Shown piece after piece: positions 28,731-64,000 of a stretch of 64,000 nucleotides of DNA. A program made the translations under genes and the position numbers. The first letter of the stretch is position 1; the number at the start of each line of letters is the position of its first letter. The stretch is taken from contig JAHLWP010000002.1 of the NCBI GenBank assembly GCA_019057865.1, positions 64,001 through 128,000 of the forward strand, read 5' to 3'. The notes under the pieces are model-generated. The model ran no database searches and was not told the origin of the DNA. It worked only from the letters and a program-made list of their open reading frames with translations. Origin of the DNA: Promethearchaeota archaeon (GTDB lineage: Archaea; Asgardarchaeota; Lokiarchaeia; Sigyniarchaeales; SOKP01).

Positions 28731-28791
28731 ATAATAATCAATGTTATTATTAAAAAAAGATTTGTGCTTTTCATTACTAAATTGTTCTACT

Positions 28792-31509
28792 TTATATTAT
28801 GTGATTGAATTTAGGGATCTCATTCAATTCAATTCTGGTTTTGTTTACAAACTGTTTGATAATATATTTTTGAATTTTTTTAGGATGATTCATATTCTCA
28901 TCAATATAATATGGAAACTCAATTAATATTATATGGTATTTCAGGCAAAATAATCTTTTAAATTCATCAGTTAACTGTTGATGCTCAAATCGTTTACGAC
29001 CTTCTTTTAAAAATCCATGAATATGATTGGGGAATATATAATGTTGGGGTCCATTATATTCAAAAGCCAATCTAATCTTCTTGCCATTTATTTTGATTAT
29101 TGCAAAACCGTCAAAGTGCATTTTGTTCAAAGCAATTCCCTCGAAATTTTTAGGACGTTTAATCATTTTTGCAATTCTATGTAACCGAATTTTTACAAAT
29201 TGAATTGACGACCCAGAGATATAAGTAAAAATTTTCTCAAAATACCAACGGCAAATGCTCTCATATTTTCCTTCCTTACATTTAGGACACCACGAGATTC
29301 TTAGTCGATCCTTTGTAGTTTCCCATATATGACCTTTTATACATTTAACTCTGATCTTAGTTTTTACAGGGATAGTTCCCTCAGTTTTTCTATTTTGTTC
29401 ATACTCTTCTTTATTTGATACAATTACTCCACCAAGCTTTAATATATAATTTTTTATATCTTTATATTTCCACGGTTTCAATCCAACACATTCAGGACAC
29501 CAATGACCATTTAATCTATCTTTAGTAGTTTCCCATATATGCTCATTATCACATTGAACAGTAATCTTAGTTCTAGTAGGTATAGTACCATCATTTTTTC
29601 TTCTATTTTTAAATTCACTTCTGCTAGTTATGAGAATACCGCCTAGTGATTCGACAAATTCGTTTATGTCTTCATAAGTTTGTTTTGATAACCCCTTACA
29701 TACACGACATCCTTTCTTTACCCATAAATTGCCATATTTTGTATTCCATTCATGTCCATTTTCACATTGAACCTTAATTCTAGTTTGACTTGGCGAAGTT
29801 TTTTCTTTTCTCTTATTAATATAAAATTCTTCTTTATTAGTTAAGAGAAAATAGCCAAGTGATTCGGTATAACTTTTTATTTCTTGATATGATAACTGAT
29901 GTGGATGTGATTTATTTGATATTAAAGTTTTAATGTGACTAGGCAAGAATGGTTTAAAATAAGATGTACGTATATTAGTCCTGCTTCCTTTTGATAATCC
30001 GATTTTTTTATATCCTTCTATTCCCAAAAATCGCCAAATTGCATTTTTAGATACTTTTTCATTTTTGATACTCTTTATCCCTAAAGAAATTAGTGAAAAA
30101 TAAGTCAAAATTATTGATAGGAAATTAGCACTTTTATTTATTCCCAGATCTGATGGTTTTAATCCATTTTCTAATGCATATTCAAATAGCCTTATGGCTT
30201 CTTTTTCAATTTTATTTCTATTTTCATCTGAAAATGGAAGATAATAAACAACTGTATTCACATAATTTATTAATTCTCTTTTAAAATTATGGTTGAACGA
30301 TATAACCATTCGAGGATATTTGATTTGTTTTAAAGAAACCTCCAAACCATCTGAAATAAACGGATAAAGCTTTCCTGGACTTAAATTTTTTAACACTGAT
30401 TTAGTAAATCCTATTTCTATATTTTTATCCTCTAAAAATTTTCCTATTGCTTTAGCAGATACTTTTCTATTATTAATTATGGTTATTCCTAAAGAAATTA
30501 AACCATAATAGATTAAGATAATCGATAAATCTAGTACATTTTTAGATTTTCCCATATCTTCAGGGGTCAATCCATTATCTAAAGCTAATTTGAATAGATT
30601 TTCTGACTTTTTTAGAGTATTATGGCGTTCATCTTCTGATATTGGTAGATTTGAAAGAATAATTTCAAAATTATTATATATTTTTGCTTTAAAATTTTCA
30701 TCATAAATATTATTATTAGAATCCTTGCTTGAAAAGGATTTAATTTTACTATTACTCTTAAAATTATAACTTTTCAAATCATCTCGAATGATTCGTTCAA
30801 ATCTGGGGAGAATTGATTTATCCCACAACTTTGAAACAATTATTACAACAGTTTCTATGAGCCATTGGATGTAAATGATGAATTCTTCATAGTATTTTGG
30901 ATTTTTTTTCAATTTAGCCTGTAATTTTTTCAACCATTCTTCAAAATCGTTTTGGGAGATATTGTGAAGGTTCTCCAAGAATTCAGGTTTAATATTCTTA
31001 ACAGTTATTAGTTTTAGGTGGTCTGTTAGAGCTTTAAGTTCGGCTTTTTTTAACTTATTTATATTATCTTTTAGATTTGCTATACATTGTTGTTTTTTTA
31101 ACTCAAAATAAGTAATACGAGAAAAGACAATTATAAAGTTATCTTTAAAGATTTTTGAAAAATCACCGTCTTTAAAGATGCTAGCAATGCTTTCCTTTTG
31201 TTTCTCAGTTTCTTGAAATTCTCCCCCTTCAGTTTCCGTTATAAACTTTTTAATTGTTTCATAAAACCGTTTCCAGGGAGAATTTTTTGATTTATCAGTG
31301 CTGCCACTTAAATTATTATCATTTTTATTTTCAATTATTTCATCTTTTTCTTGATTTTTTTCATTATTATATCTAATTTCAGCACCACATAATTCACAAA
31401 ATAGAGGGTCACTATTCTCGTTAATTTTTTCGAGCAAATCATTTGGAAATTTCCACCCACAGAATTTACAACGATTTAAGGAACTAGTTTGAGATTTTTT
31501 TTCAATCAT
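28792..31509 (-). CDS. Multidomain protein: Zn ribbon + 2 helical (TFIIB/cyclin-like) repeats + 3 Zn-finger repeats + C-terminal PD-(D/E)xK-like nuclease
   Basis: CKFC..CELC; duplicated LP.S..ER...LF..AL.NGL.P.D.G...LSIIL.Y..LISLG; 3x C..(G/E)H.W...C..C; HFDG..LAFEYNGPQHY. Confidence 0.75.
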   Translation of the reverse strand: MIEKKSQTSSLNRCKFCGWKFPNDLLEKINENSDPLFCELCGAEIRYNNEKNQEKDEIIENKNDNNLSGSTDKSKNSPWKRFYETIKKFITETEGGEFQETEKQKESIASIFKDGDFSKIFKDNFIIVFSRITYFELKKQQCIANLKDNINKLKKAELKALTDHLKLITVKNIKPEFLENLHNISQNDFEEWLKKLQAKLKKNPKYYEEFIIYIQWLIETVVIIVSKLWDKSILPRFERIIRDDLKSYNFKSNSKIKSFSSKDSNNNIYDENFKAKIYNNFEIILSNLPISEDERHNTLKKSENLFKLALDNGLTPEDMGKSKNVLDLSIILIYYGLISLGITIINNRKVSAKAIGKFLEDKNIEIGFTKSVLKNLSPGKLYPFISDGLEVSLKQIKYPRMVISFNHNFKRELINYVNTVVYYLPFSDENRNKIEKEAIRLFEYALENGLKPSDLGINKSANFLSIILTYFSLISLGIKSIKNEKVSKNAIWRFLGIEGYKKIGLSKGSRTNIRTSYFKPFLPSHIKTLISNKSHPHQLSYQEIKSYTESLGYFLLTNKEEFYINKRKEKTSPSQTRIKVQCENGHEWNTKYGNLWVKKGCRVCKGLSKQTYEDINEFVESLGGILITSRSEFKNRRKNDGTIPTRTKITVQCDNEHIWETTKDRLNGHWCPECVGLKPWKYKDIKNYILKLGGVIVSNKEEYEQNRKTEGTIPVKTKIRVKCIKGHIWETTKDRLRISWCPKCKEGKYESICRWYFEKIFTYISGSSIQFVKIRLHRIAKMIKRPKNFEGIALNKMHFDGFAIIKINGKKIRLAFEYNGPQHYIFPNHIHGFLKEGRKRFEHQQLTDEFKRLFCLKYHIILIEFPYYIDENMNHPKKIQKYIIKQFVNKTRIELNEIPKFNHII

Positions 31510-31822
31510 TAATTCTTTTATTTAACAGATATATTTAAAGAAAAAGAGAATTAGAAAAATTTACAAATTCAATTAAAGAAAATACAATTATCATGTAAAA
31601 ATTAAAAGAAAGGATGATTTATTACTTATGGAAAAGATGAGTTCAGCAAAGAAGAGTCTATGCAGCACTTCCACCGAAGGATCCAAATTTACAGTGCGTT
31701 AATTCTTTTTTGTAAATTTTTAAGTATTTTCAATACATAATGATTATTAGTACACAATATTTTATATCAAGAAAATCCTAAGATTTTAAAAGAATCCACA
31801 GGAAAAATTTATAGTCAAAGTT

Positions 31823-32248
31823 ATGATAATTGAAATAGCAATCATAGTTTTATTTGGTATTTTTTTACTAACTTATTCTTTAGTGATACGACCTTTACAA
31901 GGGGAATTAATGCTTAATCTATTCATGATCGTTCTTTTAGGAGTAGTTATTATCGGCCTTATTGGCGAATATATTTATAAAAGACGTTTTAAATTAGAGA
32001 GAGTCAATATCATAAATTTATTTAAATCTTCAACCATAGTTGTTAAGTTCCTTGTTGTATTTAGTTTTATTGGCTTAGCAATTGTAGGTATTTCTGTTTA
32101 TGTTAATGTATTTTCATCGATATTTTTCAAATCTGAAAGTTTATCAAAAAATTTAGATGCTTTAAGGGATTTTGGAATTTATTTATTTGCATTCGCAGCA
32201 ATTCCTTTTCTCTTTATGAAAGGTAAAGAGAAAAACAATTCAAAATAA
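31823..32248 (+). CDS. Small 4-TM hypothetical membrane protein
   Basis: Four hydrophobic segments. Confidence 0.7.
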   Translation: MIIEIAIIVLFGIFLLTYSLVIRPLQGELMLNLFMIVLLGVVIIGLIGEYIYKRRFKLERVNIINLFKSSTIVVKFLVVFSFIGLAIVGISVYVNVFSSIFFKSESLSKNLDALRDFGIYLFAFAAIPFLFMKGKEKNNSK

Positions 32249-32272
32249 ATAAGACAGTCATATTGAGAATTA

Positions 32273-32731
32273 ATGAAGATAATTAGAAACTTGAGCCGAA
32301 AATCTGTATTTTCTTTCATTTGTTTGGTTATCATTTCAATACTTACTCTTGTTGTCTTATTGAATTTGTATTTTTTAATAGAAATAATACGAAAAAAAGG
32401 GACTAGTTATCAAGTTCAATTTCAGTCCATAAATTTCCTATTCGAATTATTAATATTATTAGGGGTTGGTTGTTTTCTTCTGATCTTATGGAAGAGATTA
32501 TTTTCAGAGAAGAGAAAGAAGATAGAGCCTAAGTACAAAAGGATTTTTCTAATAATTTTATTAATAGGTGGCTTAATTCTCTTGATATTTATTCCATTAA
32601 CGATAATTTTTTCTACTATTCCATTTGGTTTTGTTTTTAATAGTATTTTGAGGATTGGAATAATTTTATATATGTTTGGTTGGGCGATGTTATTAGCTGA
32701 TAAAATAGAAAAACAAAAAATGGAAACATGA
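32273..32731 (+). CDS. Small 4-TM hypothetical membrane protein
   Basis: Four hydrophobic segments, same topology as the upstream gene. Confidence 0.7.
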   Translation: MKIIRNLSRKSVFSFICLVIISILTLVVLLNLYFLIEIIRKKGTSYQVQFQSINFLFELLILLGVGCFLLILWKRLFSEKRKKIEPKYKRIFLIILLIGGLILLIFIPLTIIFSTIPFGFVFNSILRIGIILYMFGWAMLLADKIEKQKMET

Positions 32732-32819
32732 TTGATATATAGTATTATTTTAACAATTGAATAAAATTAAATTAATTTATAACCGAAAAAAAAATGTCCT
32801 CTGAACAGAATTCTCATTT

Positions 32820-35081
32820 TTACCTGCGCTTTTTAATTTGATATATTGATACCGAGCAAATAAGAGCAATAATTATGAATATTTCAAATATAAAGATATT
32901 TTTCATTATAGAATTATGATTTGAATTATTATCTTCACTCATTAGACGATCATCATACTTAAATATATAGAGTGTGGTCCATGATGCACTATTTCCAGCA
33001 TTATCTATTGTACATGCTCTCAAGTAATAAATCCCAGTATTAACTGCTGGAGGATTAAAAATTGGATGTATAGTAAAATTATTGGATGTTCCATTAAGAT
33101 CAGTACCCCAATAATAATAGTATCCGGCTACACCTGAGTGAGAATCTAACCCATCGCCCCAAATGAAAAAGGGATCATTTACTAAGCCTTGCCAAATATC
33201 ACTTTTAGTAGAGCCAGCTAGTTGATCGCATGTTGTAGGATTTAGAGGAGCTATATTATCGAATTTAAAAGTGTAAAGCGTAGTCCATGATGCATTATTT
33301 TCTGCGTTATCTTTTGCTAGAATCCTTAGATAATACGTTCCCGAACTAACTGTTGGAGCATTAAAGCTTTCCAATGAAGTAAAGGAGGATGATATTCCGT
33401 TAGGATCAGTTCCCCAATAATAAAAATATCCTGCTATATTGGATTGAGCATCAGAAGCCCCACTCCAATTAAAATAAGGATCGTTTATAGTATTTTGCCA
33501 GATATTATTTTTTGTAGATCCTTCTAATTGGTCACACATTGTTGGGTTTATAGGTGGTGTATCATCATACTTAAAGACGTAGAGACTTTTCCATGATGCA
33601 TTATTTCCAATACTATCTTGAGTTTTTACTCGTAGATAATATATACCTGAGCTAACTGCTGGTGGATCATAACTTGAAGATGTGGTAAAAGAATTTGATG
33701 TTCCATTAGGATCAGGTCCCCAGTAATAATAATAACCTTTAACATTTGTATGAACATCTGAAGCACCATTCCAGCTGAAGGAAGGATTGTTTACCGAACC
33801 TTGCCATACATTATTCTCTGTCGAACCTTCTAATTGTACGCACGATGTAGGATTTAATGGAGGAGTAGCATCAATTAAAATCTTAGTGGGTGATATATAG
33901 TTTATATTATTGTCTTCATTGAATTCATCGATATCATTATTAATATCTAGAATTCTACCAATGTAATATCTTCCACTTGGCACATTTTCAGGAAAAATCC
34001 CTGACCAACCTGAAATTTTATATTTTGTAGGAGAAATTGAAAATATAGGTTCAATCCCTAGTAGATAATCCTCCTCTGAAAAAATAGTATCATTTGAAGC
34101 ATAATATGAAATAGTAAAAGACTCTGATGAGACTGTTCCTACATTATGAACTTCGCACCACGTTTTAAAATGTGTTATCCCAGCCCCAACAGTTGTAGTA
34201 TTGAAGCTGGCATAGTTATTAGTTCCAGAAGCTAAATCAGGTTTATTAATGGATGTCTCATCAGCAAAGATCCAATTATTTATGGCATATAACTTATTTT
34301 GATTTATTGTTGTTCCATGATTACTGCCAGAACCATCATCACCGCATGTATGGACAGAGAGGATAAATGGATCAGTTCCGTTATCGAACCAAACAGGAGC
34401 TCCACTCATACCTCCTTCTGTATCCAAATAATACCAATGATTATTTTCAGTTGCAATACGTCCACTTTCATAGCACCAGTACATATTTTGTCCACTATCT
34501 AAATCGTAAGGATAACCAGCTATGTTAAGAGCTCCTCTATAGACTGAATCTGATGTTTCTCCAGAATATAATTCCATCCATCCTGTTTGCAGACCAATAT
34601 CTTGGTCAAGGGTTAAAAGCGCCAAATCATATTGAGTGTATTCACTTTCTATCCAATAAGTATATGTTCGCATATTAATCACCCAAGTATACCCATAAGG
34701 CTCATTTCCATTATCAACAGCTGGTGAAACTTTTATTGAGTCAGCCCATCCACCAAGAGAATTTTGATATACACAGTGTCCAGCAGTCAGCACATGATTT
34801 TTATCGATTATCACGCCTGAACCAATATAATTCGAGCCTCCCCAAGTTATGCGTAGTTTTACAATTGTACTCCATGGATAAGAGGTTGTTGGAGTTATTC
34901 TTACTCTATCATCATCTCCAAGTACATTGGATAAGAACAAAATATTTTCATTTTTATTATTTGAATTTACTGTCTTGATACTGATTGTAGATGGAATATA
35001 TGTAAAAACAACTATAAAAATAATTATTAAGACAAAATTTCTTTTACTATACTTGATTTTCAAATTGTTATGCTCCAACAA
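32820..35081 (-). CDS. Surface-anchored trypsin-like (V8-type) serine protease with CARDB-like domain and 3 Ig/FN3-like repeats
   Basis: N-terminal signal/TM; LTAGHC, YDLALL, GGMSGAP catalytic triad; E.NEDNN motif; C-terminal TM. Confidence 0.88.
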   Translation of the reverse strand: MLEHNNLKIKYSKRNFVLIIIFIVVFTYIPSTISIKTVNSNNKNENILFLSNVLGDDDRVRITPTTSYPWSTIVKLRITWGGSNYIGSGVIIDKNHVLTAGHCVYQNSLGGWADSIKVSPAVDNGNEPYGYTWVINMRTYTYWIESEYTQYDLALLTLDQDIGLQTGWMELYSGETSDSVYRGALNIAGYPYDLDSGQNMYWCYESGRIATENNHWYYLDTEGGMSGAPVWFDNGTDPFILSVHTCGDDGSGSNHGTTINQNKLYAINNWIFADETSINKPDLASGTNNYASFNTTTVGAGITHFKTWCEVHNVGTVSSESFTISYYASNDTIFSEEDYLLGIEPIFSISPTKYKISGWSGIFPENVPSGRYYIGRILDINNDIDEFNEDNNINYISPTKILIDATPPLNPTSCVQLEGSTENNVWQGSVNNPSFSWNGASDVHTNVKGYYYYWGPDPNGTSNSFTTSSSYDPPAVSSGIYYLRVKTQDSIGNNASWKSLYVFKYDDTPPINPTMCDQLEGSTKNNIWQNTINDPYFNWSGASDAQSNIAGYFYYWGTDPNGISSSFTSLESFNAPTVSSGTYYLRILAKDNAENNASWTTLYTFKFDNIAPLNPTTCDQLAGSTKSDIWQGLVNDPFFIWGDGLDSHSGVAGYYYYWGTDLNGTSNNFTIHPIFNPPAVNTGIYYLRACTIDNAGNSASWTTLYIFKYDDRLMSEDNNSNHNSIMKNIFIFEIFIIIALICSVSIYQIKKRR
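32955..33872 (-). repeat. Three 306-bp intragenic repeats (102-aa Ig/FN3-like domains)
   Basis: DATPPLNPTSC / DDTPPINPTMC / DNIAPLNPTTC spaced exactly 306 bp apart. Confidence 0.9.
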
Positions 35082-35167
35082 GACTTCTTATATCCTTCTT
35101 TTCTATATTAAGACATAAAAAGTAAACACAAAGAGGAATAAAAAAAAAATAAAAGTATGAATTCCTG

Positions 35168-38100
35168 TTAATCCCAATCTTTAAAAGCCGAATCCTTTAA
35201 ATCATTAAAGTCTCCATTGGATCCGGTTTTACATACTTCTTTTTTAACCTTTTCGCCTTGATCTATTTGTTTTTCCTTTTTTCTTTCTCCTTTAACCCAT
35301 CTTCCACCTTTAACTGTTGCCACCATAATAGAAGCTGATATTGCTACGCTCAAACCTGCTAAGATTGTGCCACTCACTTTAAGCTTAAAAGGATCTGGTT
35401 CTGAAATCGTTTGTAGGTATGATAGTATATTTTGACCATTTGGATAATAATCATCAACGATAATAATATTAAAAAAGTATTTTCCTAATCCATTGTATCC
35501 ATAGGTTAGAGTAAATTTTGAATGGCTTATGTAATCTTTTCGACTGAAATTTAAAGTTATAAGATCTTGGTCATCTTTTAAAATATCAATAGATAATGTC
35601 GAATTATAAACTGGTTGAAATCCCGAGTTGAATTTCCGAGATATGTTTATTTCAAAGTTAATCCATTCCTTATCCTTTAAAATTGTATAATTAACAATTT
35701 GTTCAAACTCAGTTTGAAAGAATACCGGAGTCTGACCAATTACTTTTGAACCTTCATATACCTTTATATCCCCCTCAACATAAGGATAATAGTTAGGATC
35801 TTCTGGAATCATCAAATTTAATTGATAAGTTTTATCGAATTGTCTCTCAAGGATTAAAACGCCAAACTGGATGCTTTCGAATTTAACAGAAGTATAAGGA
35901 CCAAAGTTGGATAGAATTATATTACTAAAAGATGTTGAAATTGTATTAACACTTCCTAAATTAATCGATTCATCATATTCGCATATAAATTTTAATTCAC
36001 TATTTTTTGCCATTTCACAAATCCATAGAAGAATCTCTTGCTTAATCATTTGGTGATCAGAACTTATATAAAACTCATTCAAATCCTCTGAATATAGTGA
36101 TTTAACTAAATCCCCCGTTAATTCAAGGTTAAAATCAATCTCCAAATCCAAAATTTCTGAAATTTTATAAGAATAATAGATATTGTTTATATTATCATAA
36201 TTTATGTTTTGGAGAACATAATCTTTGATCTTTTGACTGTTTAAATCATAAAGATCCAGTGCTTTTAGAATATAGATCATGTAATAAGTATTTTGTAAGA
36301 TAATATCGACATTGGAAGTGTATCGAGGATCAAAATAGAGTGTGGAAGAGGTTTCAATGATATTTCTTTCAATATATCCATATAGTGCTCCTTTATCAAA
36401 AGATAAATTAACTATACTTCCTAAATTCAGATGGTTAACTAGCACTTCTAACGATTTTGTGGCATAATAGGAGTATTTAAAGAATATCTTCTTTATTTGG
36501 CTTTCATATGAAAAGAAGGAATTTCCACGCATAGGTAAAAATGCTCCGTAATATTCTGGATAAGAATCGCTTAGAAACTGTGATTGTATTATATCATTAA
36601 TCAGAATTTCTAGTCCAAATTCTCCCTTAAAGTCATCCAATTTAAATAGCTTATTCATTGAATCTAAGGCAAAAAAGAGCGATTTAAAAGTCATTACCAT
36701 ATCAATTTCGGTAATATAATTACGATGTCCTATATTATAGTATTCAATAGGACGAGAACGAAATCCAGGCATCAGAGGATCAGCATTTATATAATCTAGA
36801 AACCCATACCAATATTCAGGATAATCATATTGTCTGAAACATTCCTTTATGACTAAATAAAGATTTTGTATATCCAAATCTGATATTCGATCAAACAATT
36901 GAAATGATGATACAATTGTATTGATAAGCTTTAGAGAGGTATATTCTTTAGAAGTAAGTGAAAAGCCCTTAAACTGATAAAAATTTTTAACTGCATTAGC
37001 AATTTGAATTTTTTCAGAAGAAGTTAAGGTAGAAATTGTACCTGTGGAGTTTAAAGACCGAATAATCTGGAATGTGTCGATTAACTCATACATGGTAACT
37101 GTTGTTGAGGAATCCCATATACTAAGATGATTTCTGTGGTTTAATATAAAGTTAAGTACAGCATTTTGATTTATACTTGAATATCCTGTTGTTAGAGAAA
37201 GATCTAAGCCAATTGCAGTAGCAACAATATTAGTATAGTTATGATCCAGCTTAGACATTTCAAAATAATTTTCATTTATAATATATAACTCATTGAGAAA
37301 TTGATGAAAACTTACCTTATTAATGGTGGCTCCCATTTCAAATACTTCTAAAGTTTTAATACAATAGTAAGAAGAAAGAAGGCTGGGTTCTTTAGTTGGA
37401 GCTAAACTGTCAAATGTATTATTGTTATCATTAGGAAAACCTCCATATCTCCAATTAGTGCTTATTGAATCTTGTAGGTCATTTATATATTGTATTACCT
37501 CATTTTTACTAGCTGTATAACTACTCCAATCATCCATTAACAAGTCTAATGTCATCACTGCAAAGTATGTATTATCCATAGTAGAAATTTTAAAGTAATT
37601 GTCTAAATCCACATTGTAGGGTTGTCCAATAAATCCACTTGAGACTGGATTGTAACAACTCCAAATGAAATCGATTGATTTTTGGATGTCAATTAAATCC
37701 AACTTATTTAATAAATCTAAGGATAAAACAGCATAACAATTAACTTCAAGAAGCGTAGCAAGAGAATAATATGTACGTGAGAAATCTGTGTCCAAGTATC
37801 TATAAGCATATTTATCATAGAAAATATTAGTATTATTATCATAGCAAGACATTATGAACTCTATTGTATCATTTACATTAACCTGATCTAACTGTTCAAT
37901 GATTTCATATATATAAAGTGCATAAAATGTTGCTTGCAAGGATGGTTCATATACTTGCGGAAAATATCCTAAAGAGGAATAATCTGATAATTTATCTGAA
38001 AACATCTCTTGAATTATATCATAGTTAGTTTTTGAAGCAGAGATGATTGGCTTATTATTAATCTCATTTTTTATATCAATCTGCTCATTTTGAATAAATT

Positions 38101-38206
38101 CTTGGCGAAACCGGGTATCTTGACCTAAATTTCCCTCAATTAAAAATATTGAACTGATACACATTAGAAAACAAAAGCAAAACAAAACTTTTTGAACTCT
38201 TTTCAA
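35168..38206 (-). CDS. Large secreted/membrane-anchored prenyltransferase-like alpha-alpha toroid repeat protein
   Basis: Signal peptide; repeats such as ATFYALYIY, FIWSCYN..SGF, NTYFAV.TL, YGGF; C-terminal TM. Confidence 0.7.
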   Translation of the reverse strand: MKRVQKVLFCFCFLMCISSIFLIEGNLGQDTRFRQEFIQNEQIDIKNEINNKPIISASKTNYDIIQEMFSDKLSDYSSLGYFPQVYEPSLQATFYALYIYEIIEQLDQVNVNDTIEFIMSCYDNNTNIFYDKYAYRYLDTDFSRTYYSLATLLEVNCYAVLSLDLLNKLDLIDIQKSIDFIWSCYNPVSSGFIGQPYNVDLDNYFKISTMDNTYFAVMTLDLLMDDWSSYTASKNEVIQYINDLQDSISTNWRYGGFPNDNNNTFDSLAPTKEPSLLSSYYCIKTLEVFEMGATINKVSFHQFLNELYIINENYFEMSKLDHNYTNIVATAIGLDLSLTTGYSSINQNAVLNFILNHRNHLSIWDSSTTVTMYELIDTFQIIRSLNSTGTISTLTSSEKIQIANAVKNFYQFKGFSLTSKEYTSLKLINTIVSSFQLFDRISDLDIQNLYLVIKECFRQYDYPEYWYGFLDYINADPLMPGFRSRPIEYYNIGHRNYITEIDMVMTFKSLFFALDSMNKLFKLDDFKGEFGLEILINDIIQSQFLSDSYPEYYGAFLPMRGNSFFSYESQIKKIFFKYSYYATKSLEVLVNHLNLGSIVNLSFDKGALYGYIERNIIETSSTLYFDPRYTSNVDIILQNTYYMIYILKALDLYDLNSQKIKDYVLQNINYDNINNIYYSYKISEILDLEIDFNLELTGDLVKSLYSEDLNEFYISSDHQMIKQEILLWICEMAKNSELKFICEYDESINLGSVNTISTSFSNIILSNFGPYTSVKFESIQFGVLILERQFDKTYQLNLMIPEDPNYYPYVEGDIKVYEGSKVIGQTPVFFQTEFEQIVNYTILKDKEWINFEINISRKFNSGFQPVYNSTLSIDILKDDQDLITLNFSRKDYISHSKFTLTYGYNGLGKYFFNIIIVDDYYPNGQNILSYLQTISEPDPFKLKVSGTILAGLSVAISASIMVATVKGGRWVKGERKKEKQIDQGEKVKKEVCKTGSNGDFNDLKDSAFKDWD

Positions 38207-38221
38207 TTTTTACATCACCAT

Positions 38222-38566
38222 TTAGATATCATCTATTATGCCTATAATTGCGCCAATAAAGACCAAAATACCAGGTAAAATTTTACAGAAAATGAAAAGT
38301 AGTACCCCAAATACAATAAGGGTAAGCCAATGCCATGGTATGGGATCATCAGGTTTCATTGTAACTAGAAATGTTAAAGTAGCGGTTATCATTCCAATAA
38401 TAATACCATTAACTCCGTTTATGCTGAAACCTATGGGCCATATAGTAAATTTCTCAGTATTTAAGAGAGTAAAAAAGCAAAATATAAATCCTAAGAGTGC
38501 TCCAAAGGCTGTACAAAACTTTATTATTTTATTATGTTTGTAGTTTTTTACCATTTTTAGAATCAT
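38222..38566 (-). CDS. Small membrane protein
   Basis: Hydrophobic 114-aa ORF co-oriented with the toroid-protein gene. Confidence 0.7.
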   Translation of the reverse strand: MILKMVKNYKHNKIIKFCTAFGALLGFIFCFFTLLNTEKFTIWPIGFSINGVNGIIIGMITATLTFLVTMKPDDPIPWHWLTLIVFGVLLFIFCKILPGILVFIGAIIGIIDDI

Positions 38567-38830
38567 TTTTAAATTTAATTTTTCTGAAAAAGATATTCAA
38601 CTCAGTATATTTAAATAAAAAATATGAATAAAAAATCCAAACAAGAATTAATTGTCTTTCTCAATTCTATCTATGAAACCTTATAATTTTTTATCTAAAT
38701 CATAAGACTCTATTAATTTAAAAGAAAAACCATGTTTTAATAACCACAATTAACTCTTTATTAACCAGATTTAAAAACTAGTTATTGTTATTTATTATAG
38801 TACTTTTACATTTTTGGAAATCTAGTCATT

Positions 38831-39661
38831 ATGAGCTGGGAAAAGAAAAAATTTTTAATTGTTGTAAAAGCTTATCCAGAAAGGAGTGGTTCATACGGTT
38901 CTACTATTTGTATGGCAGGTCTAACTGAAGATAATGAGTGGATTCGAATCTATCCTGTAGTTTTTGACTATTACATTAAAAAGCTCAAATTTGAAAAATT
39001 TACGTGGATTGAAGCAGAAATTAGGAAAGCTAAGGAGAAACTGAAGAGAAAAGAGAGTTATAAAGTTAATATGGATTCAATTAGAGTAGTGGATACATCA
39101 TTAGTATTAAAAGGAAAAACTGAAAAAGAAAAAAGAAAAATCTGGTCTAAAAGACGTGAAATAATAAATAATAATTTAAGTTCTTCAATTTATGAATTGA
39201 AAGAAAATTGGAAAAAAAATAACTTATCCCTAGGAGTAATAAAACCTAAACTAATTGATTTGCATTTTAGAAAACCAATAGATGATATAAAAATAGAGCA
39301 TGAGAAATTAATTCAAAAGACTCTCGATGGAAAAAAAATATCAGTAGCGGATCAAATTGAGCATAAAATAAGTTATAAATTTAAATGTCAAGATTCAAAA
39401 TGTTCATGTAATTATACAAAAAAAAAGCACCATAATATTATTTGTGAAGACTGGGAATTGGGTGAATCATTAAGAACTTGGGATTACTCTTCAGAGGAAA
39501 AAGAAATGAAAATAAGGCAAAAGTATTTTGATGAGATGAAAATTAAGAGAGATTTATATTTCTTTATGGGAATGTATTCTCAATTTACTACATGGTTAAT
39601 CATAGGTTTGTTTTATCCACCAAAAATTGGTGAAGGAATTGGACTTTCAAGATTTATATGA
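38831..39661 (+). CDS. Conserved protein of the dual-OB-like family found with DUF488
   Basis: VKAYP.RS..YG..ICMAG...WIRIYPV, RKESY, SLGVIKP, YKFKC..C..H...EDWE, LYFFMG, FYPP. Confidence 0.65.
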   Translation: MSWEKKKFLIVVKAYPERSGSYGSTICMAGLTEDNEWIRIYPVVFDYYIKKLKFEKFTWIEAEIRKAKEKLKRKESYKVNMDSIRVVDTSLVLKGKTEKEKRKIWSKRREIINNNLSSSIYELKENWKKNNLSLGVIKPKLIDLHFRKPIDDIKIEHEKLIQKTLDGKKISVADQIEHKISYKFKCQDSKCSCNYTKKKHHNIICEDWELGESLRTWDYSSEEKEMKIRQKYFDEMKIKRDLYFFMGMYSQFTTWLIIGLFYPPKIGEGIGLSRFI

Positions 39662-39734
39662 GAAAATATAGAAGGATTTTTTATTTTTAAATAATTGGAA
39701 TATAAGATCAGAAAAGAATAAAATAGTATGAAAA

Positions 39735-40802
39735 ATGAAAATTAAAATTTCAAAAATAAATGTTGGTAAACACTCAATAAGAGATAGTATAGATGCGAAT
39801 CACGTTAAAGAAATTAAGAATAGTTTTAAAATAGATGGACAGTGGGATCCAATAATTGTTAGACCAGATATAAACGGAAATTACGATTTAGTTGCTGGAC
39901 ATTATCGTTTACAAGCGGCAAAAGAATTAAGATGGAATGAAATTGAAGCCACTATAAAAGATTTAGAAGATATCGATGCGGATGTTTTATCTTTAAAGAC
40001 CAATTTAATGCATTCAGAAATGAGCCCAACTGAGAAAGGAAAGGTAATTAATAAACTAATAACTACTTATGGAATTTCTCAGAAAGATCTTTCATTCAAA
40101 CTTGGAATAAGTCAAGCACAAGTTAGTAAGTTATTAACTTTAGCTCTATCTTTACATAAATCAGTTGTTGATTCTTTGAACTCTGGAAAAATTAACTATG
40201 GTGTTGCTTCTGTAATTGGTAGCTTAGACCCTAACCAACAGCCAAGTTTTCTTAAAATTATTACAGAGAGGAAAATTACTCAACCATCAGAAGCAAGCAC
40301 ACTAAAAGCTAAATTTTTAAACAACACAATTTATACTATTGGATATCAAGGAAAAAATCTAGATTCTTTACTAGAAATTTTAAAAGAAACTAAGATTGAC
40401 GTTCTTATTGATATTAGAGAATCTGGTAAAAGTAGTAATAAACCAGAATTTAATTCAGAAATATTAAAAAGAGAATTTCAGAAGATTAATATAAAATATA
40501 TACATAAATCTGAGTTAGGAGTTATATATCAGATTAGAACACCATATATAGAGGAATACATTGATGACAAAGCTTTTAAGGGATGGTATAGATGGCATTT
40601 AAAAGATATTGAATTCGATATCTCAGAATTCATAAAATTCCTTAAAAATAATGGAAGTACTTGTTTAATGTGCATGGAGGAATATGCAAAACCAATTAAA
40701 GCTCAAAAATATTATTGTCATAGAGATTTTCTAGCTGATCTCATAATAAATCATAAATCTGAAGATCCTCTGCTTAAATTTGAAAATAGAATAGATCTAT
40801 AG
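39735..40802 (+). CDS. ParB/Srx + HTH + DUF488 fusion protein
   Basis: PIIVR...LVAGHYRLQA (ParB), SQKDLSFKLGISQAQVSKLL (HTH), IYTIGY..DVLIDIR..ELG..CLMCME..CHR (DUF488). Confidence 0.85.
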   Translation: MKIKISKINVGKHSIRDSIDANHVKEIKNSFKIDGQWDPIIVRPDINGNYDLVAGHYRLQAAKELRWNEIEATIKDLEDIDADVLSLKTNLMHSEMSPTEKGKVINKLITTYGISQKDLSFKLGISQAQVSKLLTLALSLHKSVVDSLNSGKINYGVASVIGSLDPNQQPSFLKIITERKITQPSEASTLKAKFLNNTIYTIGYQGKNLDSLLEILKETKIDVLIDIRESGKSSNKPEFNSEILKREFQKINIKYIHKSELGVIYQIRTPYIEEYIDDKAFKGWYRWHLKDIEFDISEFIKFLKNNGSTCLMCMEEYAKPIKAQKYYCHRDFLADLIINHKSEDPLLKFENRIDL

Positions 40803-40923
40803 ACTTTAAAAATAAAATCTCTTATTGGGAATTTTAATATGGAGTTCAATAAATTTATTTATAAGATTAATACTACCATTCATTTTTATCTTGTTTAAGA
40901 TTAATGGAATTTTCTTGGTTATA

Positions 40924-41394
40924 TTATACGTTATTGCTTTCCCAATAAGTTTTATGGTAGTTGTTTTTATACCTATCTTTTTCACTTCTAGCTACAAAGT
41001 AAGCTAAGATAAAACCAACAAGAACAAGTAATCCGCAAAATATTAGTAAAAACCCATTAAAAATTCCCTCAGATCCTTTAATAATCAAAATTGCTATTCC
41101 TAATTCTAATGGTAGAACTGAAAGAAAACTAAATGCTCCACCTATGTAAAACACATGCTCCCACTTAATTTTCCTTTCTTTTTCTGATTGAGTAAAATTA
41201 TAATATAATAGAGTTAGTATGAATACAATTCCTATCTGTAAGAAATAAAAACCAAAAAAGAATAATAAAAATTTATCAATGAGAGTTAATCCTTTTAAAT
41301 AAAATAAAGAAGAAAATAGTAAAAAACTAATAATAAAGAAGGAGACCAGAAATAAATAATAAAATACTTTACTTTTAACATCGTGAAAAATCAT
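40924..41394 (-). CDS. 4-TM hypothetical membrane protein (cassette 3)
   Basis: Hydrophobic ORF directly downstream of repeat copy B. Confidence 0.7.
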   Translation of the reverse strand: MIFHDVKSKVFYYLFLVSFFIISFLLFSSLFYLKGLTLIDKFLLFFFGFYFLQIGIVFILTLLYYNFTQSEKERKIKWEHVFYIGGAFSFLSVLPLELGIAILIIKGSEGIFNGFLLIFCGLLVLVGFILAYFVARSEKDRYKNNYHKTYWESNNV

Positions 41395-41443
41395 CTATAT
41401 ATAATACTAGTACTAATTCTAATATTAAAATATGATATTTCCC

Positions 41444-41578
41444 TTAATGATCTTCCTCTTCACCGTTACCCTCAAGTATTTCATTTACAAATTTCTCAAA
41501 TCTATCAAAACCCTCTGAATCAGCATCAGTAGAACTTAAAGTTTCCTTTTTCTCTTTAGGAATTGAATTCTTGAGCAT
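41444..41578 (-). repeat. Repeat copy B: 44-codon ORF matching the 3' half of the 43174-43383 gene
   Basis: MLKNSIPKEKKETLSSTDADSEGFDRFEKFVNEILEGNGEEEDH*; 41514-41572 matches 43235-43293 at 57/59 nt. Confidence 0.88.
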
Positions 41579-41626
41579 TCATGCTTAATTTAAATTTATA
41601 AGTAATTTTTAAAATCCTTTTTTATA

Positions 41627-42451
41627 CTAAGATTTTTTGAATACCCTAAAGAAACTGAAAATAATTAAACTAAAACCTGAAATAGATAGTATTAATAACA
41701 ATATAACAAAAGGGGAATTAAATTGAAAGATATCTATTGCATTATCTGATGGAAGAAGAAGATAAGCATAATATAAAATAAATGCTACCATAATCTGCAT
41801 CATAAATCCAATACGAGGAAATAATCTAAATATATTTTTACTTTTTTTAGATTTAAGAATTATTTTTCCTTCTCCTCTCTGGTTATACTGAAGTCTTTTA
41901 CTTAAGTAATTATAAATATTTAAATATAAATATAGAATAAATAAACTTGTTAAGAAAAAAAGCCCCCAATAACGATATTCATATGTTAAACCTAAATCTA
42001 GTTTAGAAGTCTTTAAATAATAAAAAATATAAAAAATAAGACTAAAAATAAGAACAAAAAAGAGAACTAAAAGAATTAGGTAGTTTAAAAGTTTAAATTT
42101 TGTAATATTCAATTTCCTTTCCTTTATCTTAATTCCATTCTTTTTTTTCTTTGATTTTAATAAAATTACCTTTACCAACTCTTGGGGTGCATCAGCTTTT
42201 TGTGCTATTTCTTCTGATGAAAGATTTGGATATTTTTGAATTATTGATTTAATCTCATTAATTCTTTCTTTTTTTAGAATTATTACAATAGTAAAAATAT
42301 AAATAATTGTTGATAGGAAAAATGCTGTAAAAGTGAGGACAATATCAAGTATTCGAATAATTCCTAATATTAGAATTACAACTATTATCATAAAATACAT
42401 TAACCTAATAACTAGTTTTGTTTTAATCATAACTTTACGAGATTTAATCAT
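41627..42451 (-). CDS. Hypothetical membrane protein (cassette 2) with a short HTH-like loop
   Basis: ~6 TM segments; YPNLSSEEIAQKADAPQELV. Confidence 0.7.
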   Translation of the reverse strand: MIKSRKVMIKTKLVIRLMYFMIIVVILILGIIRILDIVLTFTAFFLSTIIYIFTIVIILKKERINEIKSIIQKYPNLSSEEIAQKADAPQELVKVILLKSKKKKNGIKIKERKLNITKFKLLNYLILLVLFFVLIFSLIFYIFYYLKTSKLDLGLTYEYRYWGLFFLTSLFILYLYLNIYNYLSKRLQYNQRGEGKIILKSKKSKNIFRLFPRIGFMMQIMVAFILYYAYLLLPSDNAIDIFQFNSPFVILLLILSISGFSLIIFSFFRVFKKS

Positions 42452-42519
42452 AATAGAAGATTATATTGGTAGTACTTATTATAATGCACTAGTAATTATT
42501 ATTATATCTACTTTATAAC

Positions 42520-43020
42520 CTAATCTTCTTTCTCTTCCTCTTTACGCTCAATTAACTCGTTCACAAATTCTTCAAATTCATCCAATGCACCCTGTAAACC
42601 CATTTTAATTCCTAAAATCATTAAAACCAGTCCAAAAAAGGCAAATATCCCTACCCCCCATCCAATTAAATTTAATATAGAGTGGAGTAAAATAGTGGAA
42701 TACAAAAAGACAATAGCTGCAAGTACCATTATTAATATACCCGCTACTATTATTGCAATACAAAGTTTTGCTTTTTTCTTATCAATATATTTATTGCTCT
42801 TTTTATCAGAATGCTTTTTAAACTTGTTCTCAAAATAGGTTATTATGGGAAAAAATACGAACATAGCTACTACTACATTTAATAACTGAAGTAGCCAAAA
42901 TTCTGCTTGCTGACTGAATCTTGTATTAATATAATTTATTGAAGTAAAAAATAAAAAAAAAAGTAAAATTACAGTTATAATTACTAATGTAATTTTTACT
43001 AGTGTCTCTTTAGTTTGAAT
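42520..43020 (-). CDS. 4-TM membrane protein (cassette 1), probable ATT start; C-terminus is repeat copy C
   Basis: Frame open 52 codons upstream of ATG 42864 (IQTKETLVKITLVIITVILLFF...); ends LDEFEEFVNELIERKEEEKED. Confidence 0.65.
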   Translation of the reverse strand: MQTKETLVKITLVIITVILLFFLFFTSINYINTRFSQQAEFWLLQLLNVVVAMFVFFPIITYFENKFKKHSDKKSNKYIDKKKAKLCIAIIVAGILIMVLAAIVFLYSTILLHSILNLIGWGVGIFAFFGLVLMILGIKMGLQGALDEFEEFVNELIERKEEEKED

Positions 43021-43173
43021 AACTAATCATCACTTATATGAATAGTTTTTATAACCATATCAATTAATATTATGATAGAAACTATCCATCCGAATAATAC
43101 TTGTTAATAATTGGCTTCCTCATAACATTCCATATAAATAATAAAAAATCTCGCTTTTAATCTTTACTTAAGA

Positions 43174-43383
43174 TTAATCCTCTTCCTCACCATTAAGTAT
43201 CTCACTCACAAATTCCTCAAATTTCCTAAGAATATCTGAATCAGCATCAGTAGAACTTAAAATTTCCTTTTTCTCTTTAGTAATTGAATTCTTTATAAAC
43301 TTTTTCTCTACAAAATGCTTAATTGCCTTCCTGTATTCCCTTCTCTTACTTTTTGGAACGCGAACGCTTACAAAATCAGATAT
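43174..43383 (-). CDS. Small ribbon-helix-helix-like protein with acidic tail (repeat copy A); start uncertain
   Basis: SDFVSVRVPKSKRREYRKAIKHFVE (strand-helix pattern) ...LSSTDADS...KFEEFVSEILNGEEED. Confidence 0.55.
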   Translation of the reverse strand: MSDFVSVRVPKSKRREYRKAIKHFVEKKFIKNSITKEKKEILSSTDADSDILRKFEEFVSEILNGEEED

Positions 43384-43432
43384 ACATAAATAATAAGAAG
43401 AAGGAGAAATTTTAAAATCGATCGATAAATAA

Positions 43433-44251: not shown

Positions 44252-44274
44252 TTATTTCACATCTCTAATTTTAC

Positions 44275-45663: not shown

Positions 45664-45727
45664 GTTAGTTAGTTAAATTACTTTTTTAAAATAATTATAT
45701 TAGTTAAATAAAAAATTGTAAATAGTG

Positions 45728-46540: not shown

Positions 46541-46785
46541 TAATCTTATATTTCTTACATTTCCGAATATGAAACGTTATAAAAAAACAAATTTGTTAAA
46601 AAAATTCCTTTTTAGGTTTTAAATGTGGTACTGGTGGAACTTTATTAAACGTCCATTTTTTTAGTGTGGGATATATATATTAATGATTCTGTTTTTTCGC
46701 ATAAATTCAATTTTTCATGATTTAAAAATTAAAATTTTTATTATATCTCAAATTTCCTTTTCTAAAAGATAGAAAATTATAATAA

Positions 46786-61965: not shown

Positions 61966-62223
61966 TATCAAATTATTTTTGTGAAGATTTCTTTAGCTTC
62001 TTGATAAGAAGGATTATCTTGCGGTAAATCTAGCAAATTGACTTTAGTTCTTTTTTTAGATCCTCTAATATATTATTATTCATTTTTGCAAGCTCATCCG
62101 TATTTAAGAATTTAATTTTGAAGATTTTATTTTTTTTATTTTTTTTTTTCTGTTAACATTTTCAATTTATTTGTCATTATGTAGTGAAAATTTTCTACCT
62201 TATTGTTTTTGAATCATTTAAAC

Positions 62224-62433
62224 TTATCTTTGATTTTCACTAGAAATATTAAAAACCCGAACTTCATATTTTTTTTCAGGGTTGATCTTACCTGTACGGA
62301 TAAAATCGATTGGGATATTAAAATAATACGAGTCTCCTTTTTTTGTTGGTTTTTTAACAACCACAGTGATTAAATTTTGCTCCATAAGGTACCATAAACT
62401 GTTATAGTATTTTTCTGTTATACAAAAAATCAT
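62224..62433 (-). CDS. Small AbrB/SpoVT-like (DUF2080-like) DNA-binding protein
   Basis: KKPTKKGDSYYFNIP..I....I..EKKYEV swapped-hairpin pattern; likely start MEQNL. Confidence 0.6.
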   Translation of the reverse strand: MIFCITEKYYNSLWYLMEQNLITVVVKKPTKKGDSYYFNIPIDFIRTGKINPEKKYEVRVFNISSENQR

Positions 62434-62477
62434 AGGACTCTTTAGAAATTTAACTTGGAGTATCTTTTGTATTAATT

Positions 62478-63827
62478 ATGACACAATCTCACCCCAATTC
62501 TTATTTTAAAAAACTTTATGTTTATTTGGACACCAAAGAAGTCCAACTACTTGTAAACAAATTAAAGATTAATGAAGGGATGACACAAAAAAAAATTAGC
62601 GGGAAAATCGGGTCAAGCATTAAGAGTGTGATGAATCGCGGGTCAGCATTGAGGATTAAAAGCTACCAAATATTATGTGAATTGGCTAAGATGGTAAATA
62701 TAACACTAACTATAAAGAAAAAAAAACCTGTTCATACTTATTGCGTAAGATCTATGCAAGAATTAGCAAAAGAAATTGGGCTAAAGAAAACGGGAATAGC
62801 AGGGAGATTCTTATCAGAAGAGTATAAGGGAATGAATGTATCTCATAGATGGCAATGCGGGAAGTGCGGAAGAAAGTGGAAGACGTCTCCAAATAGCATT
62901 AAATATCAAGGAAGTTGGTGTAAAAAATGTTCAGGGCGGGAAACATGGACATATGAGCAGATGGTGGAACTTGCACGAAAGCGGGGTATTGAAAAAACTG
63001 GAGTCATGGGTAAGTTTTTGACGAGCAAAGAGGATTATAAAAAGCAATCATACCCAGATAGAAATACATATCGGTGGAAATGTGGAAAGTGCGGTCATAT
63101 ATGGGAAGCGACTGCCAATAATATTAAGCGAGGATCATGGTGTAGAACATGCCAATATACCCTTCTTTCCCATATATTTAAGAAGCCATATCAAGAAATA
63201 TTGGAACTAGCTAAAAATGTAGGGATTATAAAAACGGGCTATGCAGGTACATTTTTAGCAAATAAAGAGGAATATAACAAAGTCAGAAAACCCAGCCACC
63301 ATAAATTCATGTGGAAATGTGGGAAATGCAAGGAAATTTTTGAGATGGATATAACTCACGTAAGCCGACCGCAATGGTGTCCGAGCTGTACCGAAGGGGA
63401 AAGCGAAGTGATATGTCGCGGGTTTTTCGAATGTATTTTCAAAACCAAATTTCCTAAACAGCGACCAGAATGGTTGGTGAATCCCTTGAGCGGAGGTCAG
63501 ATGCACCTTGACGGATATAATAAAAAGTTAAAGTTGGCGTTTGAGTTTAACGGACCGCAACATTATAAGATGTATCCCAAATTTCATAAGGATTATCAAG
63601 ATTTTAAGAAGCAAGTAGAGCGGGATATGTTCAAAGCGTTATTGTGTAAAGAGCATGGATTAATAATAATTATAGTGCCATATACATTAGACTATGATGA
63701 GTTTCAGGAATATATTCAAGCAGAATATATGAGATTAACGGGAAAAGAGATAAAAAACGTACCTAAATACGATTGGAGAACGTTTAAAATAGAAGGCTCT
63801 AACTTATTAGACTATTTTTGCAAATAA
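62478..63827 (+). CDS. HTH + 3 Zn-finger repeats + PD-(D/E)xK-like endonuclease
   Basis: 3x WxCGKC...WCxxC; E..CR..FE.IF, HLDGYN..LAFEFNGPQHY. Confidence 0.8.
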   Translation: MTQSHPNSYFKKLYVYLDTKEVQLLVNKLKINEGMTQKKISGKIGSSIKSVMNRGSALRIKSYQILCELAKMVNITLTIKKKKPVHTYCVRSMQELAKEIGLKKTGIAGRFLSEEYKGMNVSHRWQCGKCGRKWKTSPNSIKYQGSWCKKCSGRETWTYEQMVELARKRGIEKTGVMGKFLTSKEDYKKQSYPDRNTYRWKCGKCGHIWEATANNIKRGSWCRTCQYTLLSHIFKKPYQEILELAKNVGIIKTGYAGTFLANKEEYNKVRKPSHHKFMWKCGKCKEIFEMDITHVSRPQWCPSCTEGESEVICRGFFECIFKTKFPKQRPEWLVNPLSGGQMHLDGYNKKLKLAFEFNGPQHYKMYPKFHKDYQDFKKQVERDMFKALLCKEHGLIIIIVPYTLDYDEFQEYIQAEYMRLTGKEIKNVPKYDWRTFKIEGSNLLDYFCK

Positions 63828-63874
63828 TTCTTTTCCAGTTTCATACACTTCACTTTCATTAGGTAGTCTGACTC

Positions 63875-64000
63875 CTAACCTAATATTTTTGATGATAGAT
63901 TTTCAGAGAAATGGATAATCCACGCTTCGTTGCTATTTGGTTGGATCGGAGACCCCCATTCCTTTAGATTATGATGTGAAGCAATTATATGGATAATTTC
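63875..64000 (-). CDS. C-terminus of an HD-domain protein (YhaM/Cbf1-like), partial
   Basis: EIIHIIASHHNLKEWGSPIQPNSNEAWIIHFSENLSSKILG*; absent from the ORF track. Confidence 0.75.
   Translation of the reverse strand, partial: EIIHIIASHHNLKEWGSPIQPNSNEAWIIHFSENLSSKILG

Follow-up and report, generated by a model that had tools for sequence, protein, structure and literature searches.

A repeated gene tail at the cargo-proximal end of a 14.7-kb genomic island in a Lokiarchaeia genome

Introduction

In polymorphic toxin loci, orphan toxin-tip and immunity modules stand behind the cdiA and rhs genes: an intact gene comes first, and after it lie 3' fragments that have been displaced, each accompanied by a further gene. 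Their content varies from strain to strain, and they are attributed to recombination within the part of the gene that is conserved. A similar layout is seen in a stretch of 64,000 nucleotides (the window) from the genome of a Promethearchaeota archaeon of the class Lokiarchaeia (assembly GCA_019057865.1, contig JAHLWP010000002.1, positions 64,001 to 128,000), where three membrane genes form an array with copies of the 3' end of one small gene. The original prediction for this DNA was of an integrase-free locus at which recombination in the conserved small gene stacks units of tail plus cargo, in the manner of the orphan arrays of polymorphic toxin loci. That likeness holds for the topology, in which a full copy at the 5' end precedes displaced 3' pieces and their cargo, but not for a toxin. 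The gene upstream of the array encodes GGGP synthase and no toxin, and Pfam finds no toxin domain in the small gene. The island to which the array belongs also differs in that its repeated 3' end is conserved and its linker variable, its cargo is not visibly a cognate immunity gene, and the anchor stands first among the genes of a mobile island.

Integrons (IntI, attI, attC, Pc) are comparable in that unrelated genes, several of which share one direction, are lined up behind a conserved platform carrying the promoter and vary between strains. The present islands, by contrast, have no tyrosine recombinase, no attC-like structured repeats and no fixed junctions. A further parallel lies in the anti-phage hotspots of P2/P4-type phages and satellites (Rousset et al. 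2022, cited in PMC13700489) and in tandem accretion in genomic islands. They share with our islands conserved flanking core genes and fast-exchanged, defence-type cargo, here PDC-M19, AbiV-type HEPN proteins, Ymh and nucleases. Our islands differ in their archaeal host, in having no virion or integrase genes and no match in IMG/VR, and in the zinc-finger nuclease at their far end. A limited literature search found no description of this island architecture.

The array and its island

The array is the left, cargo-proximal end of a genome-specific island of 14.7 kb (28731..43432, minus strand) and is not a free-standing locus: a gene for a large zinc-finger nuclease lies at the other end. The island is inserted between the stop codon of the GGGP synthase gene (GGGPS; 43433-44251, minus strand) and a 26-nt spacer before the gene for DGGGP synthase (DGGGPS). 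The gap between these two genes measures 23-38 nt in all 47 other genomes of the genus that have both on one contig; in the present genome it is 14.7 kb. Genomes with an empty site include G012, whose GGGPS is 98% identical. When the empty sites of G012 and G030 are aligned to both flanks, the insertion point falls directly after the GGGPS stop codon, and the 26-nt host spacer is seen to be kept on the DGGGPS side. An insertion here, the same site empty in relatives and sharp boundaries on both sides together define a genomic island. GC content is 21-27% in the region 38.2-43.3 kb, against 29-33% in the flanks.

In the open reading frame (ORF) map of the window, the minus-strand order is GGGPS, copy A of the small gene, cargo gene 1 (g1), cargo gene 2 (g2), copy B and cargo gene 3 (g3). 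The small gene, the three membrane genes and the repeated tails were thus all correctly placed in the original prediction. Copy A (43174..43376) is separated from the GGGPS stop codon by a filler of 56 nt (43377..43432) that matches neither the host intergenic spacer, nor the family leader (see below), nor the rest of the genome, nor any fetched locus. It is a true member of the small-gene family (E 1.2e-25 with the family hidden Markov model (HMM), profile positions 11-77), but one without the family's first 11-12 codons: in the alignment, homology begins at TCTGATTTTGTAAGC. The ORF ends at 43174 with the C-terminal residues LSSTDADSDILRKFEEFVSEILNGEEED, and its reading frame stays open upstream as far as an ATG at 43473, inside the 3' end of GGGPS.

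Cargo gene 1 (42520-42864, minus strand) encodes 114 aa with two hydrophobic segments, and its last ~20 residues (42520-42585), ending in LDEFEEFVNELIERKEEEKED, are a diverged copy of the family tail. This part of the original prediction is supported by the reading frame, which is preserved, and by the rarity of the motif: FE[EK]F[VIL] occurs within the last 25 residues of only three of the 6194 six-frame ORFs of at least 80 aa in the whole genome, namely copy A, g1 and one unrelated ORF. With two of the three being neighbours, the chance of such an adjacency is about 1 in 1000. At the DNA level the case is weaker, since the repeat search gives 74% identity over 46 nt and the g1 tail is detected neither by BLAST nor by a profile of the family tail. 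Hydrophobicity marks g2 (41627-42451, minus strand; 274 aa) as a multi-pass membrane protein with 5-6 hydrophobic segments and g3 (40924-41394, minus strand; 156 aa) as a membrane protein with 4-5. As had been claimed, g1, g2 and g3 show no similarity to one another (best E 0.27).

Copy B (41444..41600, minus strand; family HMM E 6e-4, profile positions 40-80) forms with copy A a direct repeat of 116 nt and 82% identity (41457-41572 versus 43178-43293). In register, the first 59 nt agree at 57 positions (97%), confirming the count originally made for this core, and the next 57 nt at 38 (67%); on both sides of the repeat identity falls to a background of 33-38%. The 135-nt ORF first taken as the whole of copy B is present (41444-41578, 44 codons), but the copy extends further 5' as a frameshifted remnant. 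Upstream of the repeat it retains the 10-mer AATTAAGCAT, followed by a 13-nt deletion relative to copy A, and a tblastn match reads A-like codons across three stops. These features make copy B a decayed 3' two-thirds of the gene and not a clean tail. The ATG of its ORF sits in novel junction sequence, GAATGCTC, which replaces 21 nt of copy A beside the 13-nt deletion. The repeat search of the locus returned solely the direct repeats shared by A, B and g1, along with AT-rich chance pairs; no imperfect inverted or structured repeat of attC type was found at the array junctions.

The assembly was checked against contigs from other sequencing runs. One built independently from run X1, possibly the source sample, spans 38595-46600 with no differences, and run X3, from a different study, contains A, g1 and g2, with a depth of only ~3 over copy B and g3. 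To the extent that contigs can tell, misassembly is thereby excluded. The repeated tail is genuine, and the array is a partly decayed example of its island kind.

The far (right) end of the island is occupied by the gene for a 905-aa multi-zinc-finger nuclease (28792..31509, minus strand), 61 nt from the DGGGPS start codon. Over its whole length the protein has no Pfam match. Its C-terminal ~370 residues are 30-45% identical to the 442-459-aa proteins found at the right end of canonical islands and to many paralogues in the genus. The N-terminal 260-280 residues recur, at 31-67% identity, at the start of many genus proteins of 450-1260 aa; the C-terminal part recurs separately from them, and the family is modular and much shuffled. 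Pfam scans of the island proteins revealed no tyrosine or serine recombinase, no transposase and no Phage_integrase domain, so that the locus is indeed integrase-free, though not free of a nuclease. A nuclease gene at an island end beside a host gene recalls the free-standing homing endonucleases of the T4 seg/mob type, whose spread replaces a gene end, as does, at the cooC-type site described below, a displaced host-gene fragment on the other side. The islands differ from these in carrying up to 14 kb of cargo and a regulator module, and the lipid-operon site occupied here has no duplicated host gene end.

The remaining cargo includes a pair of plus-strand genes (38831..40802) assigned to the candidate defence system PDC-M19, in which both PADLOC profiles are matched by adjacent genes: PDC-M19B by a 276-aa protein (38831-39661; E 2.1e-51) and PDC-M19A by a fusion in which Pfam finds ParB_N, HTH_ParB and DUF488 (39735-40802; E 4.8e-23). 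A PDC-M19 pair likewise lies downstream of the small gene in another locus, L093. Between 32820 and 38566, on the minus strand, are genes for a 114-aa membrane protein, a 1012-aa protein with a prenyltransferase-type alpha-alpha toroid domain and a 753-aa trypsin-like, secreted-type protease with CARDB/Ig domains (all by Pfam).

Recurrence among Lokiarchaeia

ORFs were clustered over 39 loci (L082-L120) drawn from genomes and metagenomes. In about 45 loci an integrated island has the small gene as the first of its genes, and the canonical order is host flank, a leader of ~170 nt, the small gene, cargo, an AbrB-like gene, a zinc-finger or PD-(D/E)XK protein, and a fragment of a host gene. The left host flanks are of at least four kinds, among them a displaced fragment of a cooC/ParA-type ATPase gene and a GH57-like gene. 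The leader starts sharply at CACTTTCGTATAATGTTACAAAGATACA and contains two to three imperfect palindromes, TTTCGTGATACGGTA (CGTGAYACG), 21 bp apart and followed by AAGTTTAAAAA, as well as a TATA-like box. Since these boxes are confined to leaders and are never found at the far island end, we read them as operators and not as transposon ends. Neither Rfam nor tRNA scans, applied to the leader and to entire loci, gave any match, so the leader is no known RNA and the islands are not targeted to tRNA genes. The AbrB-like gene encodes 52 aa on the opposite strand, with one or two tiny genes beside it. At the right end a treble-clef zinc-finger protein of 442-459 aa or a PD-(D/E)XK-domain protein of 543-779 aa is encoded a few bases from the host gene. 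Measured against this plan, the island in the window is missing three parts, namely leader, AbrB-like gene and the initial 11-12 codons of the small gene; neither a leader nor a CGTGAYACG box occurs anywhere in the window.

The idea of an anchor gene followed by variable cargo is borne out by these loci: among about 33 of them, the first gene downstream of the small gene falls into more than 20 unrelated clusters. The cargo includes Hypoth_Ymh, HEPN_AbiV, Endonuclease_NS (a non-specific endonuclease), GIY-YIG and PDC-M19 proteins, and further a Ras-like GTPase, beta-helix surface proteins and membrane proteins. Outside the window it consists mostly of nucleases and HEPN-type proteins, often convergent with the small gene and not co-directional.

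A second island of the family lies within the same window, 19 kb away, at a cooC-type site (61968..64000 and beyond, plus strand; G000:C41:125966-129922). As mapped by tblastn with the core proteins, the ORF map and Pfam, it comprises an AbrB-like gene (62224-62433, minus strand) and a 449-aa nuclease with three treble-clef zinc fingers (62478-63827, plus strand; three DUF4379 domains), and continues with a 267-aa gene and then full-length cooC. It is without leader, small gene and cargo, the opposite part to that lost from the main island. In another locus (L110:176-529) the first ~40 codons of the small gene run straight into sequence of the right-end zinc-finger nuclease; on its sequence, L110 is an island stripped of all cargo by internal deletion.

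Profile searches place at least 145 proteins of ~80 aa in the small-gene family, all from metagenome-assembled genomes (MAGs) of Promethearchaeota/Lokiarchaeia or from sediment metagenomes; searches of whole genomes find relatives of the small gene in a few genomes of the genus. The viral contigs of IMG/VR gave no match to the family profile. The family consensus reads MGRKKKFGEESDFVSVRVPKSKRKEYRxAIKxFVEKKFA, then ~20 variable residues, GFRKFEEFIKDI and a charged tail, and the profile comprises a head MGRKRKFGEESDFVSVRVPKSKRKEY..FVEKKF and a tail GFRKFEEF[IV]. In a codon comparison the median ratio of nonsynonymous to synonymous substitution (dN/dS) is ~0.05 in the head and ~0.2 in the tail, values biased low because the sequences were picked by motif; by this measure the small gene does encode a protein. 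Its decay seems common: single in-frame stops are seen in metagenome members at L088:~1860, L089:~965, L106:~3700, L116:~100 and L070:~1545. In L103 (1893-3662) the small gene is fused in frame to a downstream ORF of ~500 aa, giving 589 aa in total.

Ribbon-helix-helix (RHH) repressors that bind tandem operators include those of the Arc/CopG/MetJ type and, in archaea, F55 of SSV1. The small protein resembles them in being small and basic, in having an N-terminal strand-like segment and helices, and in being encoded first in its operon with 21-bp-spaced palindromes upstream of the promoter. It differs in having no RHH family match and a long variable linker between its helices, and its binding to the boxes is a prediction. 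The original label of RHH-like is a suggestion, and neither sequence nor fold gives a match: none was found in Pfam, among PDB sequences, with Foldseek or, in usable form, in the ESM Atlas. The monomer model has an extended segment at residues 1-19 and helices at 20-55 and 64-76, with a mean predicted local distance difference test (pLDDT) score of 71 and a predicted template modelling (pTM) score of 0.35. In a sister genus, g28 (L148, L149, L150), two strand-helix units occur in one chain, AFVSVRVPKSKVKEYREALK ... ALITVFVPKERVGEYREAVKRFVEEK. Such a tandem chain fits a pairing of units as in RHH proteins, and so suggests, without fixing, an RHH fold.

Partial copies and variation between samples

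The tail is not confined to the window. Extra small-gene copies with cargo between them are present in three other loci, L085, L092 and L120. Two full small genes flank a nuclease gene in L085, together with a duplicated part of the leader; in L092 a full copy is followed by a 209-aa zinc-ribbon gene and then by a 3' partial copy from near codon 33; and L120 has a near-full copy, a membrane gene and then the tail only. The extra copies therefore begin variously with the full gene plus ~40 nt upstream, at codon ~29, ~33 or ~50, or with the tail alone. Limits as varied as these favour general recombination, or tandem insertion followed by deletion, over a fixed site in the tail. With partial copies starting at different places and copy B decayed, the precise unit of tail plus cargo that had been envisaged is not what is found; the differing 5' limits and the frameshift in copy B point instead to accretion by recombination between related islands, not to a dedicated cassette system.

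Cargo was also expected to differ between strains, and sequences from other samples bear this out. In another sample, a 5687-nt contig carries an intact counterpart of copy A (P0005) together with g1 (99% identity) and g2 (97%). P0005 is full length, with the MGRKKKFGEES head, and is 94% identical to copy A over the 66 shared residues. Run X3 contains A, g1 and g2 at 96-99% identity and a depth of 25-29, against the depth of ~3 noted above for B and g3. In run X6 there is a relative of A and g1 at 91-92% identity, with a canonical head in front and other DNA after, and empty-site sequence is present too. The array genes have few relatives otherwise. Among 5.8 billion clusters g1 has no homologue besides that of 99%; g2 has homologues of 97%, 82% and 82% identity in other metagenomes or MAGs and is absent from the 153 other genomes of the order; g3 has six distant homologues (34-47% identity) among 1.8 billion representatives; and neither copy B nor g3 has cluster mates at 90% identity or above. 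The cargo units are thus separable, and their content differs between samples. One contig of run X3 joins the end of the ParB-DUF488 gene (40824) to the 5' part of the DGGGPS gene (28654) with 13 other letters between; read from this contig, that population has a different island layout. Several short-sided joints in runs X4 and X6 were left unused, as they could stem from repeats or other organisms.

Copy A is one of four headless copies that start within ~10 nt of each other at TC[GT]GATTTT|GTAAGCGTT, the others being L111, L112 and a pseudogene on contig C42 of this genome. The last is the third small-gene copy in the genome (G000:C42:19040-19330; L003:1441-1740, L061:~7090-7330) and has an in-frame TGA. 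Behind it stand the final codons (RRAEEGKV and stop) of a decayed convergent Hypoth_Ymh gene, a partner also found in L082, L095 and L102. On contig C21 a head-only copy (L125; G000:C21:1925-2284) has a complete leader and codons 1-16 and ends right after GTAAGCGTT. There the head is joined to codons 1-40 of a minus-strand BKACE-like gene, of which relatives have an intact version; in G030 the counterpart of the site reads GH641, BKACE (268 aa), ABC permease, and the C21 junction itself carries a 21-nt tandem duplication. All 13 other small-gene copies in the 154 genomes of the order are intact. The C21 head carries a rare wording, GGCGAGGAGTCT, that recurs in the head joined to the 91%-identical copy A on the X6 contig, and the C21 head and copy A, which overlap by 18 nt, may be two halves of one gene.

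Several origins for these breaks were considered and rejected. The C21 head and the headless C42 copy are not reciprocal products of an inversion, the remainder of the cut 268-aa BKACE-like gene being absent from the assembly. Nor was the island cut and pasted from C21, as no BKACE fragment lies at its right end. The GATTTTG microhomology of the empty target lies to the wrong side of the insertion point. Finally, bulge-helix-bulge (BHB) micro-introns do not account for the missing head, no head sequence being found anywhere upstream.

Origin of the array

We consider it probable that the array is the cargo-proximal end of a Lokiarchaeia-specific mobile island whose cargo has been stacked by recombination in the small gene. 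In the scheme we propose, the small protein would act as a dimeric, RHH-like strand-helix binder of the leader boxes and would set the expression of the downstream cargo. New cargo would come with a related island, whole or in part, that recombines within the small gene; the crossover is placed there because no other sequence on that flank of the cargo is conserved. One crossover would put an incoming tail and its cargo behind the resident head and push the old 3' part with its own cargo downstream, giving the order A, g1 (fused to an older tail), g2, B and g3. The displaced copies would decay afterwards, and the island would be moved by its nuclease without an integrase. A crossover, or a short tract of gene conversion, would be expected to leave just such a mosaic as A and B show, with 97% identity followed by 67%.

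A number of points weigh against this scheme. The order of events is read from one mosaic, and recombination is deduced from its traces. A and B have in common the linker, the part that varies most across the family, so that a crossover there would need two near-identical parents or later gene conversion. The RHH fold and DNA binding are predicted only, with no Pfam, PDB or Foldseek match and the modest model scores given above. The island here, without leader and AbrB-like gene, cannot regulate its small gene as proposed, and it may simply be a dead end. GC content varies along the 14.7 kb, which may be one element or a composite. Nor does homologous recombination explain the common breakpoint of the headless copies.

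That breakpoint is the basis of another reading, in which codons 11-16 of the small gene (TC[GT]GATTTTGTAAGCGTT) hold a specific break or recombination site, the segment from there to the nuclease end is what moved into the lipid operon, and the array is a passenger. By our own estimate, the chance that three further random breakpoints in ~210 nt would hit one 7-nt interval is ~4e-5. The head-only C21 copy, which stops right after GTAAGCGTT, and the rare GGCGAGGAGTCT shared by its head and that of the A lineage in X6 point the same way. On the other hand, the 13 intact copies elsewhere in the order show no break, the four headless copies could all stem from one old truncation, and a plain deletion into the neighbouring BKACE-like gene would also explain the C21 junction. 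With no matching site in the empty target, no known recombinase and 56 nt of filler between the host gene and the site, such a break site is possible but unlikely. We give still less credence to a dedicated cassette-stacking system, with the conserved tail as recombination site, one unit of tail plus cargo added per event and immunity or exclusion factors as cargo. Three tail copies do stand ahead of different membrane genes, similar arrays exist in L092 and L120, the tail is well conserved in the family and cargo number varies between samples. Yet each partial copy begins at a different 5' limit, the duplication in L085 takes in the entire gene and some of the leader, copy B is frameshifted and the junctions carry no conserved inverted or structured repeat; moreover, no toxin domain is encoded upstream, and the cargo of other loci, mostly nucleases and HEPN-type proteins, is often convergent.

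The tails might alternatively be kept for function, with the C-terminal FEEFV helix serving as a docking tag that brings the g1 protein and the 44-aa copy B peptide to a common partner. The g1 tail keeps the reading frame and shows 99% conservation in a second sample, copy B has an open frame with an ATG, and the dN/dS of the family tail is ~0.2. However, 99% identity between two near-identical strains says little about selection, the family tail profile misses g1, copy B has no cluster mates, and its ATG lies within the novel sequence GAATGCTC beside the 13-nt deletion; we therefore regard a docking role as improbable. That the repeats reflect chance similarity or an assembly artefact, as AT-rich low-complexity DNA and the weak g1 match could suggest, is scarcely credible in view of the 57/59 core, the family HMM matches of both A and B, the contig without differences over the whole array and the presence of most of it in a second study.

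Implications

The gain and shuffling of accessory genes in Asgard archaea are little understood, and one repeat is now tied to a recurrent island architecture. That architecture consists of a defined end module, a candidate regulator with candidate operators, and a nuclease in the place of an integrase. Candidate defence systems are among its cargo, which close strains exchange. The leader and small gene together offer a handle for finding such islands in metagenomes. A bolder possibility, which we put forward tentatively and think rather unlikely to hold in full, is that these are undescribed integrase-free islands of Lokiarchaeia in which an operator-controlled regulator gene serves both as expression platform and as recombination anchor, including a break site at codons 11-16, and in which the modular zinc-finger nuclease moves the whole island. 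If true, this would be a functional archaeal counterpart of the integron or the defence hotspot, built from different parts.

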